This document shows positions 17,894-24,442 of a stretch of 24,442 bases of DNA, in pieces (within the stretch, counting starts at the first letter, position 1; each line of letters starts with the position of its first letter). The translations under genes were made by a program, and so were the position numbers. A model generated the notes under the pieces. That model was given only the letters and a program-made list of their open reading frames with translations, did not search any database and was not told the DNA's origin. The DNA comes from an uncultured Caldisericota bacterium (GTDB lineage Bacteria; Caldisericota; Caldisericia; Cryosericales; Cryosericaceae), in contig CAZEWU010000002.1 of NCBI GenBank assembly GCA_964516155.1, forward strand, positions 1 through 24,442. The letters run 5' to 3'.

Positions 17894-18709
17894 TCATGCA
17901 AAGACAACAATGGCCTGTCTGCGTTTGATGCGGAGCAGAACAGTCTCAAGCACACGCAGACTATAGTTCAGATTTTTCTGTTCCAGGTAGGCGGTTGTGA
18001 TGTCCTGTCCGATCACCAGGTCCATATTTCTCGAATCGGAACAGACAAGGACGGCCTTTCCCTTGCCCAGCACCGGCGTCCTGAAAACATGTCCGTCCAG
18101 CAGCTTGTTCACCCGGTCGATCTCCAGCAGACCGGTTCCCTGCTGTATCCGCTGCATCTGCATATACAGGTCCGGACTGACGGAAAGAGCATACGTCCCG
18201 TAAATGCTTTTCCCCGCCAGCAGTTCGATCGCAGAAGCGATATCGGTGAAGGCATTCTCCCCGGATGCCCAATCTTTTCTGGTGATCTTGCCGGTCCCGG
18301 ACGCCGTCAACAGACCTTCATAGCCGAGTCTCGCGTTTCCCGAATAGATCAGCTTGTCTTCGTTGAGCGCGCATGTTTCCGCCGAAGCCATCACTTTTGA
18401 AAGGTCCACAGGATACCCTGACTGTCTGCTGTTTTCAAGGTCCCGTGCCAGCAGCGTAACATCATCGTAAATGATCGGTATCTCTGCAAGCTTCCGGCCT
18501 CTGGTCGTGATGACGCCGTCTTTTGCAGCCTCGTCAACAGCATCGCTGTCATCGATCTGGACGCTTTCCACTCCGACGCCCAGCGGCCCGAAAATGTGCA
18601 GAAAACGCCGGCCGGACAGGACATTGCGAGCCGTCTCCGTCACAGCGGAATCGATCTGTCTCCACAGCTCCGCAGGTATTGAAGAGGATTCTCTGGATAA
18701 ATAACTCAT
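17894..18709 (-). CDS. family 1 encapsulin nanocompartment shell protein (HK97 fold, Linocin_M18/CFP29 family)
   Basis: The 271-aa protein aligns end-to-end by eye with T. maritima encapsulin: N-terminal 'ELWRQIDSAVTETARNVLSGRRFL..FGPLG', C-terminal 'LVIGQDITTAYLEQKNLNYSLRVLETVLLRI' versus '[31 protein letters not shown]'. RBS GGTGGAGG precedes the start. Confidence 0.85.
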   Translation of the reverse strand: MSYLSRESSSIPAELWRQIDSAVTETARNVLSGRRFLHIFGPLGVGVESVQIDDSDAVDEAAKDGVITTRGRKLAEIPIIYDDVTLLARDLENSRQSGYPVDLSKVMASAETCALNEDKLIYSGNARLGYEGLLTASGTGKITRKDWASGENAFTDIASAIELLAGKSIYGTYALSVSPDLYMQMQRIQQGTGLLEIDRVNKLLDGHVFRTPVLGKGKAVLVCSDSRNMDLVIGQDITTAYLEQKNLNYSLRVLETVLLRIKRRQAIVVFA

Positions 18710-19616: not shown

Positions 19617-20096
19617 TCAGATCGTCAGATCGTTGTCTGTTTTCAACGCATATCCCTTCTCCACCCAATGCGACAGCACCGCTGCAACGAGGGAGACCCC
19701 CAGTCCTCCGACCTCGAGGAAAAAGCAGGCGATCAGAAGCCCGGGGTGCAGCCTGTTGGAAAAGAAGAAGACGTTACTCACCACAAAGCACAGCACCGTG
19801 TCGGACAGCGCAAGCCAGCTGATAGACTGCAGGGACCGCGAGACAGGACGGGAGAACGAGCGGTCCCTGCCGATCTCGCAGCAGATCTTCCAGAGATTCC
19901 CCAGGGCCAGGTAACAGGGAACCGCGGCAATCCAGATCCAGATCACATAGGACCGGAACAGGTAAGCAAGGTCAGGAAAAGACCGTCCGAAATCCCTGCC
20001 CATGCCGGGGATGATATAAAAGAAGAAAGCGGTTGCCAGCGCCGTTACCAGAACTGTGATGCATTTCAGCCATCGCGCCAGTTGCGACTGTTTCAT
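19617..20096 (-). CDS. DUF2975-family small membrane protein (partner of YozG-like regulators)
   Basis: A ~160-aa protein with 4 hydrophobic segments, immediately upstream of and coupled to the YozG-like gene, as in the widespread DUF2975-HTH pairs. AAGGAGGTG precedes ATG 20096. Confidence 0.65.
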   Translation of the reverse strand: MKQSQLARWLKCITVLVTALATAFFFYIIPGMGRDFGRSFPDLAYLFRSYVIWIWIAAVPCYLALGNLWKICCEIGRDRSFSRPVSRSLQSISWLALSDTVLCFVVSNVFFFSNRLHPGLLIACFFLEVGGLGVSLVAAVLSHWVEKGYALKTDNDLTI

Positions 20097-20403
20097 AGAG
20101 CACACCTCCTTGTGGGTCGTGTGTTCTCACTATATCGGTATATTATCGTTTTTCAATATGTATTTATTGTATGTCGATATTCCAGCAGTGCCTCAGCCTC
20201 TGTCGCACATGTATTCCAAAGACCACTGTCAGAGCAGAGAGATCATCTGATGCGGGATGTGTCCAGTCGGAAGGGTATGGACACCCCTCATCTCTCAGGC
20301 GAGAGTGCGACCGGGGACGACCCTGCGTCAACATTCGACATCTGCACCCGCCGGCATCTGCCGATTGCTCTCATCAGGAACCTTCTATGAAAAGAGGCCG
20401 TAC

Positions 20404-20458: not shown

Positions 20459-21130
20459 CTAGGCCAGGTATTCCCTCAATTCCCTGCAGTTCTCCGCATA
20501 GGTGTGACCGGGACGGAACGCCGTCTTGGTCCCCAGCACCAGGATGTCGGCTCCCTGTTTGACGACCTGACGTGCATCATTAAACGTAAGGCTCCCGTCC
20601 ACCTCTATCGAGACATCCTGTCTTCCATGCTCGTCCAGCATCTTGCGTGTTCTGGCGATCTTGTCCAGGATCTGACTGTCAAGTTCCGGTTCCGGTACAG
20701 TGAAATTGCGTATCATCAGATTTACCATGTCGACATACGGGATCAACTCCTCCAGCACACTGAGGGGAGTGCCTGGATTCAACGTCACTGCCGGCCTGCC
20801 ACCAGCGTTCCGCACCCTTTTGAGAAGAGATGTGATCTGCATGGTCGTCTCTATCTGGATATCGATGCAGGAATTCTTGCAGTATGGCAAGAAAGCATCC
20901 AGGAGATGAGCAGGCCTTCCGACTGAAATATGAATGTCCAGCGGAATAGCCGTAGCCGCGCAGATGGCGGGAATCAGTTTCGGCGACATCAGGATTGTCT
21001 CGCCATAACTTGTATCCAGGATATCGATATGAAGCAGGTCAACCTTCGCTTCTTCCAGCTTCCCGAGCTCGGATCCCAACGCCAGCCAGTCTGCGCGTTC
21101 AATAGAAGGAGCTAGTCTGATCTTAAGCAT
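20459..21130 (-). CDS. ribulose-phosphate 3-epimerase family protein (Rpe / allulose-6-phosphate 3-epimerase-like TIM barrel)
   Basis: 'MLKIRLAPSIERADWLALGSELGKLEEAKVDLLHIDILD' matches the Rpe N-terminus, with His/Asp metal-ligand spacing. The track ORF begins 51 codons upstream and out of context. Confidence 0.8.
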   Translation of the reverse strand: MLKIRLAPSIERADWLALGSELGKLEEAKVDLLHIDILDTSYGETILMSPKLIPAICAATAIPLDIHISVGRPAHLLDAFLPYCKNSCIDIQIETTMQITSLLKRVRNAGGRPAVTLNPGTPLSVLEELIPYVDMVNLMIRNFTVPEPELDSQILDKIARTRKMLDEHGRQDVSIEVDGSLTFNDARQVVKQGADILVLGTKTAFRPGHTYAENCRELREYLA

Positions 21131-21149
21131 ATTCTCTTCACCATCCCCG

Positions 21150-21366
21150 CTAGTGCAGGTATGCACGCAGCGCGTTGCAGCGTTCCACGACGGAAACACC
21201 AGGCTGATAGATGCTTTTTGTCCCCAGGACAAACACGCTGGCACCCGCCTCTTGCGTGCGGCGAGCCACGTCAAACGAAACACCGCCGTCTACTTCGATC
21301 GGAACATCCTGCCTTCCGTGCTCATCCAGCATCTTCCGTGCCCGTGCCACCTTGGTCAGCAGCTGG
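21150..21366 (-). pseudogene. truncated paralog remnant: C-terminal ~70 codons of a second rpe-family gene, with its own stop, directly upstream of the intact copy
   Basis: The encoded 'SQLLTKVARARKMLDEHGRQDVPIEVDGGVSF...VLGTK' is about 65% identical to 'SQILDKIARTRKMLDEHGRQDVSIEVDGSLTF...VLGTK' of the intact gene. DNA similarity ends abruptly at about 21366, in a TATAAT that carries an in-frame TAA. Confidence 0.6.
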
Positions 21367-21561: not shown

Positions 21562-24258
21562 TTACCGTCCGGTATTGACGGCGGCCGGTGCAGCGGCGGG
21601 ATCGGAGAAGCTGCCGATGCGAAGAACTCCGTTCTCCTCAAGGAAGGACAGGGTCTGATCGTAACGGCCGGCCGGACCATCGGAGGTAGCATATGTATAG
21701 GTCACGACCGCATTATCCCCGTCCAGACGGACTTCGTAACGCTGGACCCATGGGCTTGACTGTCCCGTTACCCAGTGTTCTTCTCTGTAGGAAGCATACA
21801 CTGCTGCCTGAAGTTGCGTGCTGAGCAGATCGTACTGCGCCTTTCCGTTGCGTGTCCTGACCGCTTCAGCCCACTGTGCAGCGAGAGCCTTCCGCCGTGC
21901 CTGCGCAGTCGTACCGACGCCGCTTCCGGTCGGATGCCGGAACGCGGAGGGGTAAGTCGCAATGTCGGGAAGAAAAGCTTCATCATAAACACCGCTGTCC
22001 ATCCCGTTCCCGACCGCCAGGACGGAACTGCCGTCATATTGCAGCGTGACATAATGATTCAGGCCCTGCGGCGTCTGATAGTTGATGTTGATCACATGAT
22101 TTGCGCGGTAGATGATACCCGTCAACGTACTGCCGTCAGCAGTGATCTTGCTCAGGACACTGTCGGCGCCCTTGAATTCAAGGAGCTGCTCCCTCGTGAT
22201 CATGATGCCGCCGTATTCGCGGAAACCGTTATCCCAGTACAGCCAGTACGGTTTCACGGTGCGACCGGTCCCATCTGAAACGGCATCGAACGTATTCTGC
22301 TGGACCGTGAACGTGCCGTCATCCAGCTGCTCCAGGTCCTGGACCCTGCCGGAAAGAAGGGTCGCGTATGCTCTGCTGTTCTTGACACCAAAGACCAGCG
22401 TCGTGCCGCCCGTTGTATAGACTTCTTCGATCTTGAAGAACTCACTGTTGCCGGCATAAAAAACAGGCTTCGGCGAAAGAGAGAAGACATCCGTCGTTTT
22501 CAGGCTTGTCAGTCCCTTCTTCGAGACGAACCACAATTCGCCGGTGTAGAAATCTTCGCTCTCATCCACCTTCTTCCCGACCAGAGCGAACGCTTCATAG
22601 CTGCCGTCGCCGTCATAATCGTCAAGATCAAAGCTGATGATCCTCTCGCCCGTTTTCAGGGGAAGCTGCCGTGACAGCCGATCCTTCGCTTCCGCTTCGG
22701 CCTGTCTTTCTGCCGCCGGTCTGAACACGTCATACGCCTGGAAACTGTGGTCCTGCGTATTCTCCACGATCAGCTTCAGGTCCCCTACAACGTCGTCGGC
22801 GTCCCACAGATAAGCGTAGGTCTTTTCATCGATCTGCCCATACGTGGCACTCGGCGCGCCCTCTCCCTCCTGCATCAGATTGATGTCCGCCGCCTTGTCG
22901 GCGATGTCGCCCGGAACATACGGATCGGCGATCTTCTGCGCTTTCACCGTAGACAACCTGTCTGCATCGATGTCGTACCGGTACATGACGTCGTCGGCAC
23001 CCTCGCCCAGGTTATCGATATAAACTGTCTTGCCATCCTTCGTGACGGTCACCTGCGTATACGTCGACCCCTGGATGTGGGCGCTGTCGATCTTCTGAAG
23101 GTCGATGCTCCGGTACAGCTGCCCATGCCCGGCTGTGTCGTAGACAAACAGCCCGAAGTAACCGTGGAAGATGACACGCGTCCCGGAGGCATAATCGATG
23201 TCCGGCTCCGCCACGCCCGTATTCATTGTCCTGAATCTGGACGTATCGACCGCACCGGCCGCTCTGTCGTACGTTATGGCGGTTCCCAGGATGCCGGCGA
23301 TCACGATAACGGCGCACAGGGCAAGCGCCCCTCTGCGTTTTCTGCTCATGTCAAAAATGTTCACCAGCCGTTCCCTCATTACTTTCTTCCCCCCATCAAA
23401 ATACGTCGAAAACACCGTCCGGCGTCCTCTTCCCTTGCGGACCGCCGTCAGGATCGCCTCGCTGTACTGTCTCCGGAACAGAACATCTGCGTTCCGGGTC
23501 ACTGAGGAGTCGCAGGACATCTCAAGGTCCCGGTCCGATGCCGCCGCCATGAAGCAGACAAGCGGGTTGAACCAGTGCACGGCGTTGGCACAGACCATCA
23601 GCAGCTTGTACCAGATGTCTCCGCATTTGACATGCACGAGCTCATGCTTCAGGACCATCGCAAGATCACCGTCCCGGAAGTCCAGGTCCGGCAGCAGCAG
23701 GACGGGCCGGAAGAAACCCGTCGTCATGGGGCTCTGCACCTTTTTGCAGGACAGCAGCCGGACAGGACGAACGACATGCATCTCCCCGCGCACAGCATTC
23801 CAGATCGCCAGGATCCTTTCATCCTCTACGGGCCGGGAAAAACGCCGCACCACCCTCCGGAAAAGGAGGTACCCTGTGAAATGGTACAGCAGGAACGCCA
23901 CCGCGCCCAGGATCCACACAAGAGAGAGGACCGTCATAAGCGGTATCGCTGTCCGTGTCGGGGGAACAGCTGTCGCCGGAGAACTTGCCGGACTTCCCGT
24001 CTGCAAAGGAAGCGTCGTTTTCCGGGCCGGGGCGGTCACCGTTATCTGCCGTGCCGGCGCTGCAAGCCGGATCGGCGCCTGCGGCAGAGACGGGTTCCAC
24101 GGGATCAGCAACCGTACCGCCACCAGAAGCCAGACCCAGGAACGCCACCGTGCCGTGTAACGTCGGCGCAGCAACGGCAGCAGAAGCAACAGCACGGCAA
24201 TGACAGCCGACATGATCAGGGTGACTTCGATAACGTTGCTGAAGATGCGCTGCAGCAT
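21562..24258 (-). CDS. BlaR1/MecR1-family M56 zinc-metalloprotease signal transducer with a large (~570 aa) C-terminal extracytoplasmic domain of unknown type
   Basis: N-terminal polytopic region with 'HELVHVKCGDIWYKLL' (HExxH) and the downstream 'VHWFNPLV' typical of peptidase M56. There is a further TM segment at about aa 313-335. The remaining domain lacks the SxxK/STFK motif of PBP-like sensors. Confidence 0.8.
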   Translation of the reverse strand: MLQRIFSNVIEVTLIMSAVIAVLLLLLPLLRRRYTARWRSWVWLLVAVRLLIPWNPSLPQAPIRLAAPARQITVTAPARKTTLPLQTGSPASSPATAVPPTRTAIPLMTVLSLVWILGAVAFLLYHFTGYLLFRRVVRRFSRPVEDERILAIWNAVRGEMHVVRPVRLLSCKKVQSPMTTGFFRPVLLLPDLDFRDGDLAMVLKHELVHVKCGDIWYKLLMVCANAVHWFNPLVCFMAAASDRDLEMSCDSSVTRNADVLFRRQYSEAILTAVRKGRGRRTVFSTYFDGGKKVMRERLVNIFDMSRKRRGALALCAVIVIAGILGTAITYDRAAGAVDTSRFRTMNTGVAEPDIDYASGTRVIFHGYFGLFVYDTAGHGQLYRSIDLQKIDSAHIQGSTYTQVTVTKDGKTVYIDNLGEGADDVMYRYDIDADRLSTVKAQKIADPYVPGDIADKAADINLMQEGEGAPSATYGQIDEKTYAYLWDADDVVGDLKLIVENTQDHSFQAYDVFRPAAERQAEAEAKDRLSRQLPLKTGERIISFDLDDYDGDGSYEAFALVGKKVDESEDFYTGELWFVSKKGLTSLKTTDVFSLSPKPVFYAGNSEFFKIEEVYTTGGTTLVFGVKNSRAYATLLSGRVQDLEQLDDGTFTVQQNTFDAVSDGTGRTVKPYWLYWDNGFREYGGIMITREQLLEFKGADSVLSKITADGSTLTGIIYRANHVININYQTPQGLNHYVTLQYDGSSVLAVGNGMDSGVYDEAFLPDIATYPSAFRHPTGSGVGTTAQARRKALAAQWAEAVRTRNGKAQYDLLSTQLQAAVYASYREEHWVTGQSSPWVQRYEVRLDGDNAVVTYTYATSDGPAGRYDQTLSFLEENGVLRIGSFSDPAAAPAAVNTGR

Positions 24259-24261
24259 ACG

Positions 24262-24442
24262 CTATGCTCCTCCGGTCGTTTTATCAATAAACCGCTGAAG
24301 CTCTGCAAGATCATCATCGCTGATCGCATTGCTCCTGTAGAGCGTGGAGACGAACGTGGTGAGAGAGTTGCCATACAGCTTCTCCAGGAAGGACCGTCCT
24401 TCGCTTTCAAGGTAGTCCTGCTCTCCGACGACCGCCGTATAG
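24262..24442 (-). CDS. BlaI/MecI/CopY-family transcriptional repressor, C-terminal 59 codons (the 5' end lies beyond the window)
   Basis: The translation '...SFLEKLYGNSLTTFVSTLYRSNAISDDDLAELQRFIDKTTGGA*' matches the C-terminal dimerisation region of BlaI-type repressors. The TAG stop is 3 nt before the blaR1-like ATG. Confidence 0.7.
   Translation of the reverse strand, partial: YTAVVGEQDYLESEGRSFLEKLYGNSLTTFVSTLYRSNAISDDDLAELQRFIDKTTGGA

Follow-up and report, generated by a model that had tools for sequence, protein, structure and literature searches.

What does a BlaR1-like protease sense when the domain that it displays outside the membrane is not a penicillin-binding one? This question is raised by a gene pair at the end of contig CAZEWU010000002.1 (assembly GCA_964516155.1) from an uncultured Caldisericota bacterium, which we analyzed over its whole length of 24,442 nucleotides (nt), here called the window. 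Both genes lie on the minus strand. The first encodes a BlaI/MecI-family repressor, of which the window holds the 3' end (the last 59 codons, 24265..24441), and the second encodes an M56 sensor-protease of the BlaR-like type (21562..24258, 898 residues, ATG start, stop codon included). We put the probability at about 80% that the pair works by the BlaIR-family mechanism, in which a signal at the ectodomain would activate the M56 protease and lead, through cleavage of the repressor, to derepression.

Systems of this kind are already recognized. Kurtz et al. (2026, PMC13492132) analyzed ~15,000 M56 proteins with 254 architectures and found that ~6% carry a transpeptidase domain, whereas ~94% do not. 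The commonest architecture is an M56 domain followed by a C-terminus without an identifiable domain. Approximately 96% of M56 proteins are encoded at most five genes from a BlaI homologue, with blaI usually upstream, and members without the transpeptidase domain, such as CenIR, regulate non-beta-lactam regulons (PMC13492132). The pair described here belongs to that commonest class, and an original prediction, which had been made from the sequence letters and had presented the alternative sensor as the unusual feature of the locus, overrated its rarity. What sets it apart is a large, confidently folded ectodomain of three modules, the uncatalogued families to which these modules belong, and a natural swap of the sensor at a conserved regulatory locus.

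The protease domain resembles BlaR1

We compared the N-terminal part of the 898-residue protein to the Pfam profile and to the Staphylococcus aureus BlaR1 structure. Residues 9–301 (23356..24234, minus strand) match positions 3–296 of the 296-position Peptidase_M56 profile (PF05569, E 2.6e-52, 178.3 bits against a Pfam cutoff of 31), and the region is collinear with BlaR1 (8EXP residues 9–319, E 3e-14). The zinc site H201/E202/H205 of BlaR1 corresponds to H205/E206/H209, which lie in the HELVH motif at residues 205–209 (23632-23646, minus strand), and the gluzincin motif E242xxxD246 corresponds to E246-M-S-C-D250 (23509-23523, minus strand), both located by motif search and by the BlaR1 alignment. 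The active-site residues Tyr261 and Ile265 are matched by Tyr265 and Ile269, and Arg294 of the interchain salt bridge by Arg297. At the autocleavage site, Ser283–Phe284 of BlaR1 aligns with Tyr286–Phe287, such that the P1' Phe is kept. The functional roles of these BlaR1 residues, and that of extracellular loop 1 (EL1) in signaling, have been described (PMC9834060).

Hydropathy and the 8EXP alignment place transmembrane helices (TM) 1, 2 and 3 at approximately residues 9–31, 38–54 and 105–129, a re-entrant segment at ~219–237, and TM4 at ~311–333 (23260..23328, minus strand), where it joins the protease domain to the ectodomain. The hydropathy peaks themselves are at residues 4–33, 102–133, 219–237 and 307–332, with TM2 at 38–54 being weaker. 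This arrangement suggests the topology of BlaR1, with four TM helices, a re-entrant segment and an active site that would face the cytoplasm. The loop between TM2 and TM3 (residues 55–104, 23947..24096, minus strand) is rich in Pro, Ala and Thr (28/51) and is the positional equivalent of EL1 in BlaR1 (residues 56–96).

The original prediction of a canonical M56 domain is therefore borne out by the profile match, the HELVH motif and the aligned catalytic and autocleavage residues. It had placed four TM helices at the N-terminus; four are present, but only three are N-terminal, and TM4 sits just before the ectodomain, as in BlaR1. The Pro/Ala/Thr-rich insert that it reported in the first loop was a misreading, since the loop aligns with BlaR1 residues ~53–100 at equal length. 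Taken together, the profile, the zinc site, the TM layout and the adjacent BlaI-family gene all argue for membership of the M56 sensor-proteases (PF05569, MEROPS M56).

The ectodomain is composed of three modules

The ectodomain spans residues 334–898 (~565 residues). The Pfam scan of this region gave neither PF00905 nor any other match at E<=1, and the NCBIfam BlaR1/MecR1 models aligned only to the N-terminal 320–370 residues of the protein, with scores far below their cutoffs (blaR1_generic 134 vs 400, sensor_MecR1 54 vs 1200, sensor_BlaR1 46 vs 1200). Local BLAST and phmmer comparisons among the retrieved homologues split residues 336–898 into three modules, A, B and C, which are found independently and in varied order in other proteins. 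We ran AlphaFold2 on alignments built module by module from small proteins at full length; a single MAFFT alignment of trimmed fragments to the whole ectodomain was discarded because it stretched the fragments over unrelated modules. The mean predicted local distance difference test (pLDDT) score was 90.4 for module A and 90.6 for modules B and C together.

Module A (residues 337–515; 22714..23250, minus strand) is predicted to be a three-bladed partial beta-propeller. Twelve strands form three blades of four in the AlphaFold2 model, the blade count being read from the DSSP strings, and the module is thus modeled as a half-propeller. It carries the conserved motif LDYAS..VIFHGYFGLFVYD. A profile of the module gave one marginal match among the PDB sequences, the surface-layer protein chain 1L0Q (E 0.0085). 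The same kind of search retrieved 128 proteins (E<=0.01). Most are hypothetical and ~200 residues long, and the few with an organism name are from Clostridia.

Module B (residues 520–780; 21919..22701, minus strand) is modeled by AlphaFold2 as a long linker helix followed by a beta-rich domain and an alpha/beta sub-domain. The beta-rich domain has ~13 strands, for which pLDDT is mostly >92, and a DYDGDG (DxDxDG) motif. The alpha/beta sub-domain contains the conserved motifs GTG(H/R)TxKxYxxYWD...F.EYGG and YR.N.I.N.N. The profile of modules B and C had zero matches among the PDB sequences, and Foldseek comparison of module B to the PDB returned low TM-scores only, with no close solved analogue. 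At E<=1e-3, 1345 representative clusters match, most of which align to module B. In the proteins that we inspected, module B lies behind an N-terminal hydrophobic segment or beside the surface-protein domains SH3b, F5/8-C and LRR.

Module C (residues 781–891; 21586..21918, minus strand) is predicted by AlphaFold2 and Foldseek to be an NTF2/SnoaL-like domain, comprised of three helices and a curved four-stranded sheet. Its Foldseek matches include 7SJY and CaMKII hub domains, and there is a sub-threshold match to the NCBIfam model Rv0361_Cterm (E 0.005). Among the closest M56 relatives the module recurs, often in two copies. When 68 and 51 members of the families were scanned with Pfam, the matches were scattered and confined to single members, and no Pfam model covers the module A or module B families. 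As judged from these searches, all three modules lack a Pfam match, and A and B are sizeable uncatalogued domain families.

Could the C-terminal region after all have diverged strongly from a penicillin-binding or class-D-like domain, and could the pair be a control system for beta-lactam resistance? The family name would fit, as would one SxxK sequence (STVK, residues 436–439, module A) and one KTG (residues 535–537, module B). However, ~1.5 SxxK sequences are expected in the ectodomain by chance. The absence of PF00905, the confinement of the NCBIfam models to the N-terminal part and the lack of any PDB sequence match for the profile of modules B and C all speak against such a domain, and no beta-lactamase or penicillin-binding protein gene is present among the Pfam-called neighbors in the 3' part of the window or in the related contigs L001 and L002. 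We consider this explanation extremely improbable. We also rejected an identity as a BlaR1/MecR1 beta-lactam sensor, given the missing PF00905 domain, the propeller-like, beta-rich and NTF2-like folds, and the lack of a linked resistance gene. The original prediction had described the ectodomain as non-penicillin-binding and free of SxxK. The first part holds, with no sequence match to such a domain and high-confidence models of other folds, which also answers its own reservation that the region might prove to be a divergent transpeptidase sensor; the second part does not, as one STVK is present at chance level.

On cell-surface proteins, modules of the propeller, NTF2 and DxDxDG types most often have a glycan, an envelope polymer or a small hydrophobic molecule as their ligand. 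The three modeled folds are non-enzymatic ones of such binding types, and for this reason we favor a ligand from among these classes as a candidate. A narrower proposal is that the ectodomain monitors the wall or the surface layer of the cell itself, and that the regulon adjusts envelope biogenesis, as has been proposed for CenIR of Clostridioides difficile (PMC13492132). The relatives of module B are surface proteins, either secreted or anchored by their N-terminus, some of which have the wall-binding SH3b domain (PF08239), and the weak match of module A to the surface-layer chain 1L0Q points in the same direction. Against this, the CenR tail is short and largely unstructured compared to the folded 565-residue ectodomain, and no envelope genes are found beside the pair in the 3' part of the window, L001 or L002. 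This proposal falls within the BlaIR-family mechanism, from which it departs only as to where the signal originates, and we treat it as a tentative, rather unlikely specification of it.

The repressor is of the BlaI/MecI type

Next to the protease gene, the minus strand read in frame 2 from 24441 encodes 59 residues that correspond to positions 62–114 of the 115-position Penicillinase_R profile (PF03965, E 1.8e-8, 35.2 bits, cutoff 22.6). The frame ends at a TAG codon (24262-24264), followed by 3 nt (CGT) and the protease ATG at 24258, which agrees with the BlaI-type gene that the original prediction saw ending 3 nt upstream. This close spacing suggests that the repressor and protease are co-transcribed. 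The window is the whole contig and the features at both of its ends, the repressor included, are cut by the assembly; therefore, the truncation of the repressor is that of an assembly end. A near-identical contig, L001 (Logan SRR31637312), is 98.6% identical to the window across the shared 3.1 kb and has no differences in the 184 nt that lie upstream of the M56 start, the region with the repressor fragment. In L001 the repressor gene is complete (130 residues) and likewise lies 3 nt upstream of the protease gene, which settles the earlier reservation that it might be truncated or absent.

We aligned the L001 repressor to proteins of solved structure. Residues 10–125 align to MecI (1SD6, 1OKR; E 2.5e-12; residues 8–122 of 1SD6), and the protein also aligns end to end to the BlaI structures 1SD4 and 1P6R. 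The repressor is thus predicted to have a winged-helix N-terminal domain and a helical C-terminal dimerization domain, as expected for PF03965. The CxC motif of CopY is not found in the repressor, which ends in ...LQRFIDKTTGGA and has a C-terminal half without cysteine, both in the window fragment and in L001. The CopY/TcrY model TIGR02698 (NCBIfam) scored 15.7 against a cutoff of 122. The absence of a C-terminal CxC assigns the repressor to the BlaI/MecI type rather than to the CopY type. At the position aligned to the MecI cleavage site, which we take to be Asn101–Phe102, the L001 repressor has Thr–Leu.

The original prediction proposed searching for BlaI-box-like dyads upstream of the repressor, and this search was successful. 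The 186-nt intergenic region in L001 contains a promoter-like TTGACT-N17-TAGAAT sequence and two dyads, followed by a ribosome-binding site. One dyad, TTCGTCATTTGTAGAA, overlaps the -10 element and is distal from the ATG, while the other, TTCTACtagtGTAGAA, is perfect and lies after the promoter. Allowing <=2 mismatches, the dyad motif occurs twice in 10 kb of L001, compared to 0.18 occurrences expected, and both are <~60 nt from the start codon. A promoter/operator block of ~75 nt is nearly invariant between L001 and four Candidatus Cryosericum loci (L007–L010), although the proteins are 69–75% identical and the upstream flanks differ. The proximal dyad in L007–L010 is TACAgtTGTA, and a core of this type is the published operator of BlaI, MecI and CopY (PMC7253601). 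The two TACA/TGTA-type dyads at the repressor promoter are thus candidate operators. Since the near-invariant promoter carries both of them, the repressor probably autoregulates its own operon.

Divergent from the pair is a unit comprised of a small AbrB/MazE-like protein, an ATP-binding cassette (ABC) ATPase and an ABC-2 permease (L001 2833-4522 and L007 3709-5400, both minus strand), with an esterase gene after it in L001. The system might have this unit as an output, or the two may be mere neighbors.

The sensor differs at an otherwise conserved locus

We investigated the distribution of the locus among relatives. A full-length homologue with 98% identity (P0001) comes from an independent sample. 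One scan of species genomes identified the closest relatives in Candidatus Cryosericum hinesii, Candidatus Cryosericum odellii, Candidatus Cryosericum septentrionale and a metagenome-assembled genome of a Candidatus Cryosericum sp. (Candidatus Cryosericota). The identity of 69–75% is confined to the M56 part, apart from module C in the full-length match of L007 (Ca. Cryosericum hinesii). The Cryosericum loci L007–L010, with M56 proteins of 1155–1161 residues (P0002–P0009), have the same repressor, promoter/operator block and M56 core, and L007 also has the same divergent AbrB-like and ABC-transporter genes as L001. Module C is common to the Cryosericum and the 898-residue proteins (52–60% identity), whereas modules A and B are replaced in Cryosericum by Sortilin/BNR-type propeller repeats together with two copies of module C.

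Apart from the shared module C, homology to these relatives stops at approximately residue 331–336, in TM4. Because homology ends at this point while the M56 core is shared, along with the repressor and its promoter, we conclude that the sensor has been exchanged at a conserved locus. Other M56 proteins show further module orders, namely C...A in P0010, ...B in P0122 and ...A in P0028.

Comparison of the protease genes of the window and L001 gave 26 codon changes, of which 13 are synonymous and 13 non-synonymous. The codon pattern indicates purifying selection on the gene between the two samples. Twenty-four of the 26 changes fall in the ectodomain and only 2/26 in the M56 part, and on this basis the protease core is the most constrained part of the protein and the sensor the variable part. 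The L001 protein has 902 residues compared to 898 in the window, owing to a four-residue tandem duplication (FSDP-FSDP) near the C-terminus (window 21565-21600).

These data bear on the proposal that a surface-displayed binding protein uses its M56 part mainly as an anchor in the membrane, or that this part is a degenerate protease, with the repressor being regulated otherwise, for example by metal in the manner of CopY. Modules A and B are indeed widespread in proteins without an M56 domain, and some module A genes stand alone. However, every zinc-binding and catalytic residue and the Phe of the autocleavage loop are intact, the M56 part shows the strongest constraint, and the repressor lacks the CxC metal site. 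The 3-nt spacing and the family-wide linkage to BlaI also point to a functional pair, and we regard the anchor proposal as very unlikely.

One stand-alone module A protein (P0313, 214 residues) is present in 98 blocks of the collection. In L004/L005 (4798-5645) a 69-residue Peptidase_M56 fragment overlaps the start of P0313, as if an M56 sensor gene had been split or had decayed. We considered whether stand-alone module A proteins are dedicated partners of M56 proteases and rejected this, as P0313 follows an M56 fragment while two others are unlinked, and there is no general linkage.

A model for signaling

We propose the following course of events for the BlaIR-family mechanism. The winged-helix repressor dimer would bind the two TACA/TGTA-type dyads that overlap and follow its own -10 element, keeping the operon low. 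The protease would be embedded in the membrane, probably dimeric in the manner of BlaR1, with the zinc site towards the cytoplasm and the 565-residue ectodomain displayed outside, as a half-propeller, a beta-rich domain with a calcium motif and an NTF2-like domain. Binding of an extracytoplasmic ligand may shift the ectodomain relative to the EL1 loop and helix 3, and this movement would activate the M56 site, as in BlaR1. The protease would then cut the repressor in its dimerization helix, possibly at the Thr–Leu that is equivalent to the MecI site, and the repressor-protease operon, together with any other dyad-bearing promoters, would be derepressed. The model starts from the observed gene pair, its intact catalytic and autocleavage residues, the non-penicillin-binding folds and the conserved promoter with its dyads; from there, we infer the proteolysis of the repressor, the direction of signaling, the regulon and the kind of ligand.

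Several points weigh against the model. At the P1 position of the autocleavage loop, and at the site where the repressor is presumed to be cut, the residues are unlike those of S. aureus. There is no further dyad at <=2 mismatches in the 24-kb window, and therefore we name no output gene beyond the repressor-protease operon. The divergent AbrB/MazE-like and ABC-transporter operon is missing at that position in L008–L010, so its linkage to the pair is not constant. Finally, the location that we call extracellular may be periplasmic in Cryosericota, the probable host lineage as judged from this locus.

A more speculative extension concerns the geometry of the sensor. Module A, the membrane-proximal one, is exactly half of a six-bladed propeller and BlaR1 is an intimate dimer, which makes it conceivable that two copies of module A close a single six-bladed propeller across the dimer. 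Occupancy of this propeller, or of module B with its calcium motif, would set the geometry that switches the protease, and modules A, B and C would be exchangeable sensor cassettes, which Cryosericota and Clostridia have in common and which replace one another at a conserved regulatory locus. We hold this to be improbable. If true, composite-propeller sensing would be a principle distinct from the active-site/EL1 competition of BlaR1, and the three modules would represent an uncatalogued toolkit of sensor cassettes.

Comparison to known systems

The pair shares much with BlaR1-BlaI and MecR1-MecI of S. aureus, and with BlaR1-BlaI of Bacillus licheniformis. In common are an M56 gluzincin domain whose four TM helices are accompanied by a re-entrant segment, the HExxH...ExxxD signature, the Phe of the autocleavage loop, the Arg of the salt bridge, a loop of EL1 length, a winged-helix BlaI/MecI-type repressor and two TACA/TGTA-type dyads at the promoter. 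It differs from the S. aureus systems in its 565-residue, three-module ectodomain in place of the penicillin-binding sensor, in the absence of a linked beta-lactamase or PBP2a gene, and in not reaching the NCBIfam equivalog cutoffs. The gene order is repressor then protease, whereas in S. aureus blaR1 precedes blaI.

CenIR of C. difficile and other BlaIR pairs without a transpeptidase domain (PMC13492132) also combine an M56 protease of this kind with an upstream BlaI-like repressor. However, CenR's C-terminal region is ~125 residues long and predicted to be mostly disordered, compared to 565 residues in three folded domains here, and the host lineage differs. The Pseudomonas aeruginosa pair PvmSR (bioRxiv 10.64898/2026.08.03.742534), also of the BlaIR family, is reported not to control beta-lactam resistance; it is proteobacterial and regulates virulence genes. 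The anti-sigma-I factor RsgI9 of Clostridium thermocellum (PDB 7SJY) likewise has an NTF2 domain in its ectodomain, a resemblance of fold only (10–12% identity). RsgI9 is an anti-sigma factor with an S1C peptidase-like partner domain, whereas the protein described here combines modules A and B with an M56 protease and is encoded next to a repressor.

Neighboring genes

Downstream of the M56 gene, the window (20817-21350) differs structurally from L001 (8025-9499). L001 encodes a 613-residue protein in which a Mga/HTH_11/PRD regulator is joined to a ribulose-phosphate 3-epimerase domain. In the window, there is instead a plain epimerase open reading frame (20459-21283, minus strand), preceded by a 66-residue reading frame (21150-21350, minus strand) similar to the C-terminus of an epimerase. 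This region resembles what recombination or deletion between epimerase paralogues would leave behind.

Further along the window are an encapsulin shell gene (17894-18709, minus strand; Linocin_M18, E 1.1e-69) and, directly upstream of it, a gene for an EncFtn-like cargo protein, placed at ~18.7-19.1 kb by collinearity with L002 (5335-5715). From their sequences, the two genes form a predicted encapsulated-ferritin nanocompartment locus. A DUF2975 membrane protein gene (19617-20105, minus strand) and the adjacent small gene for a 72-residue XRE-type HTH_3 regulator (L002 4828-5046) form a recurrent two-gene unit.

Implications for the BlaIR family

This locus alone leaves the understanding of the M56/BlaIR family unchanged. 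It is a well-folded example of the little-explored, non-beta-lactam majority of BlaIR-family systems. The predicted operator sequence makes the regulon readable from a complete genome, and the three defined modules of the ectodomain can be expressed and screened for ligands. Candidatus Cryosericum offers a natural sensor-swap comparison, in which the same promoter, repressor and protease core are combined with a different ectodomain. Since modules A and B are sizeable families without a Pfam entry, describing both would improve the annotation of many surface proteins of anaerobes.

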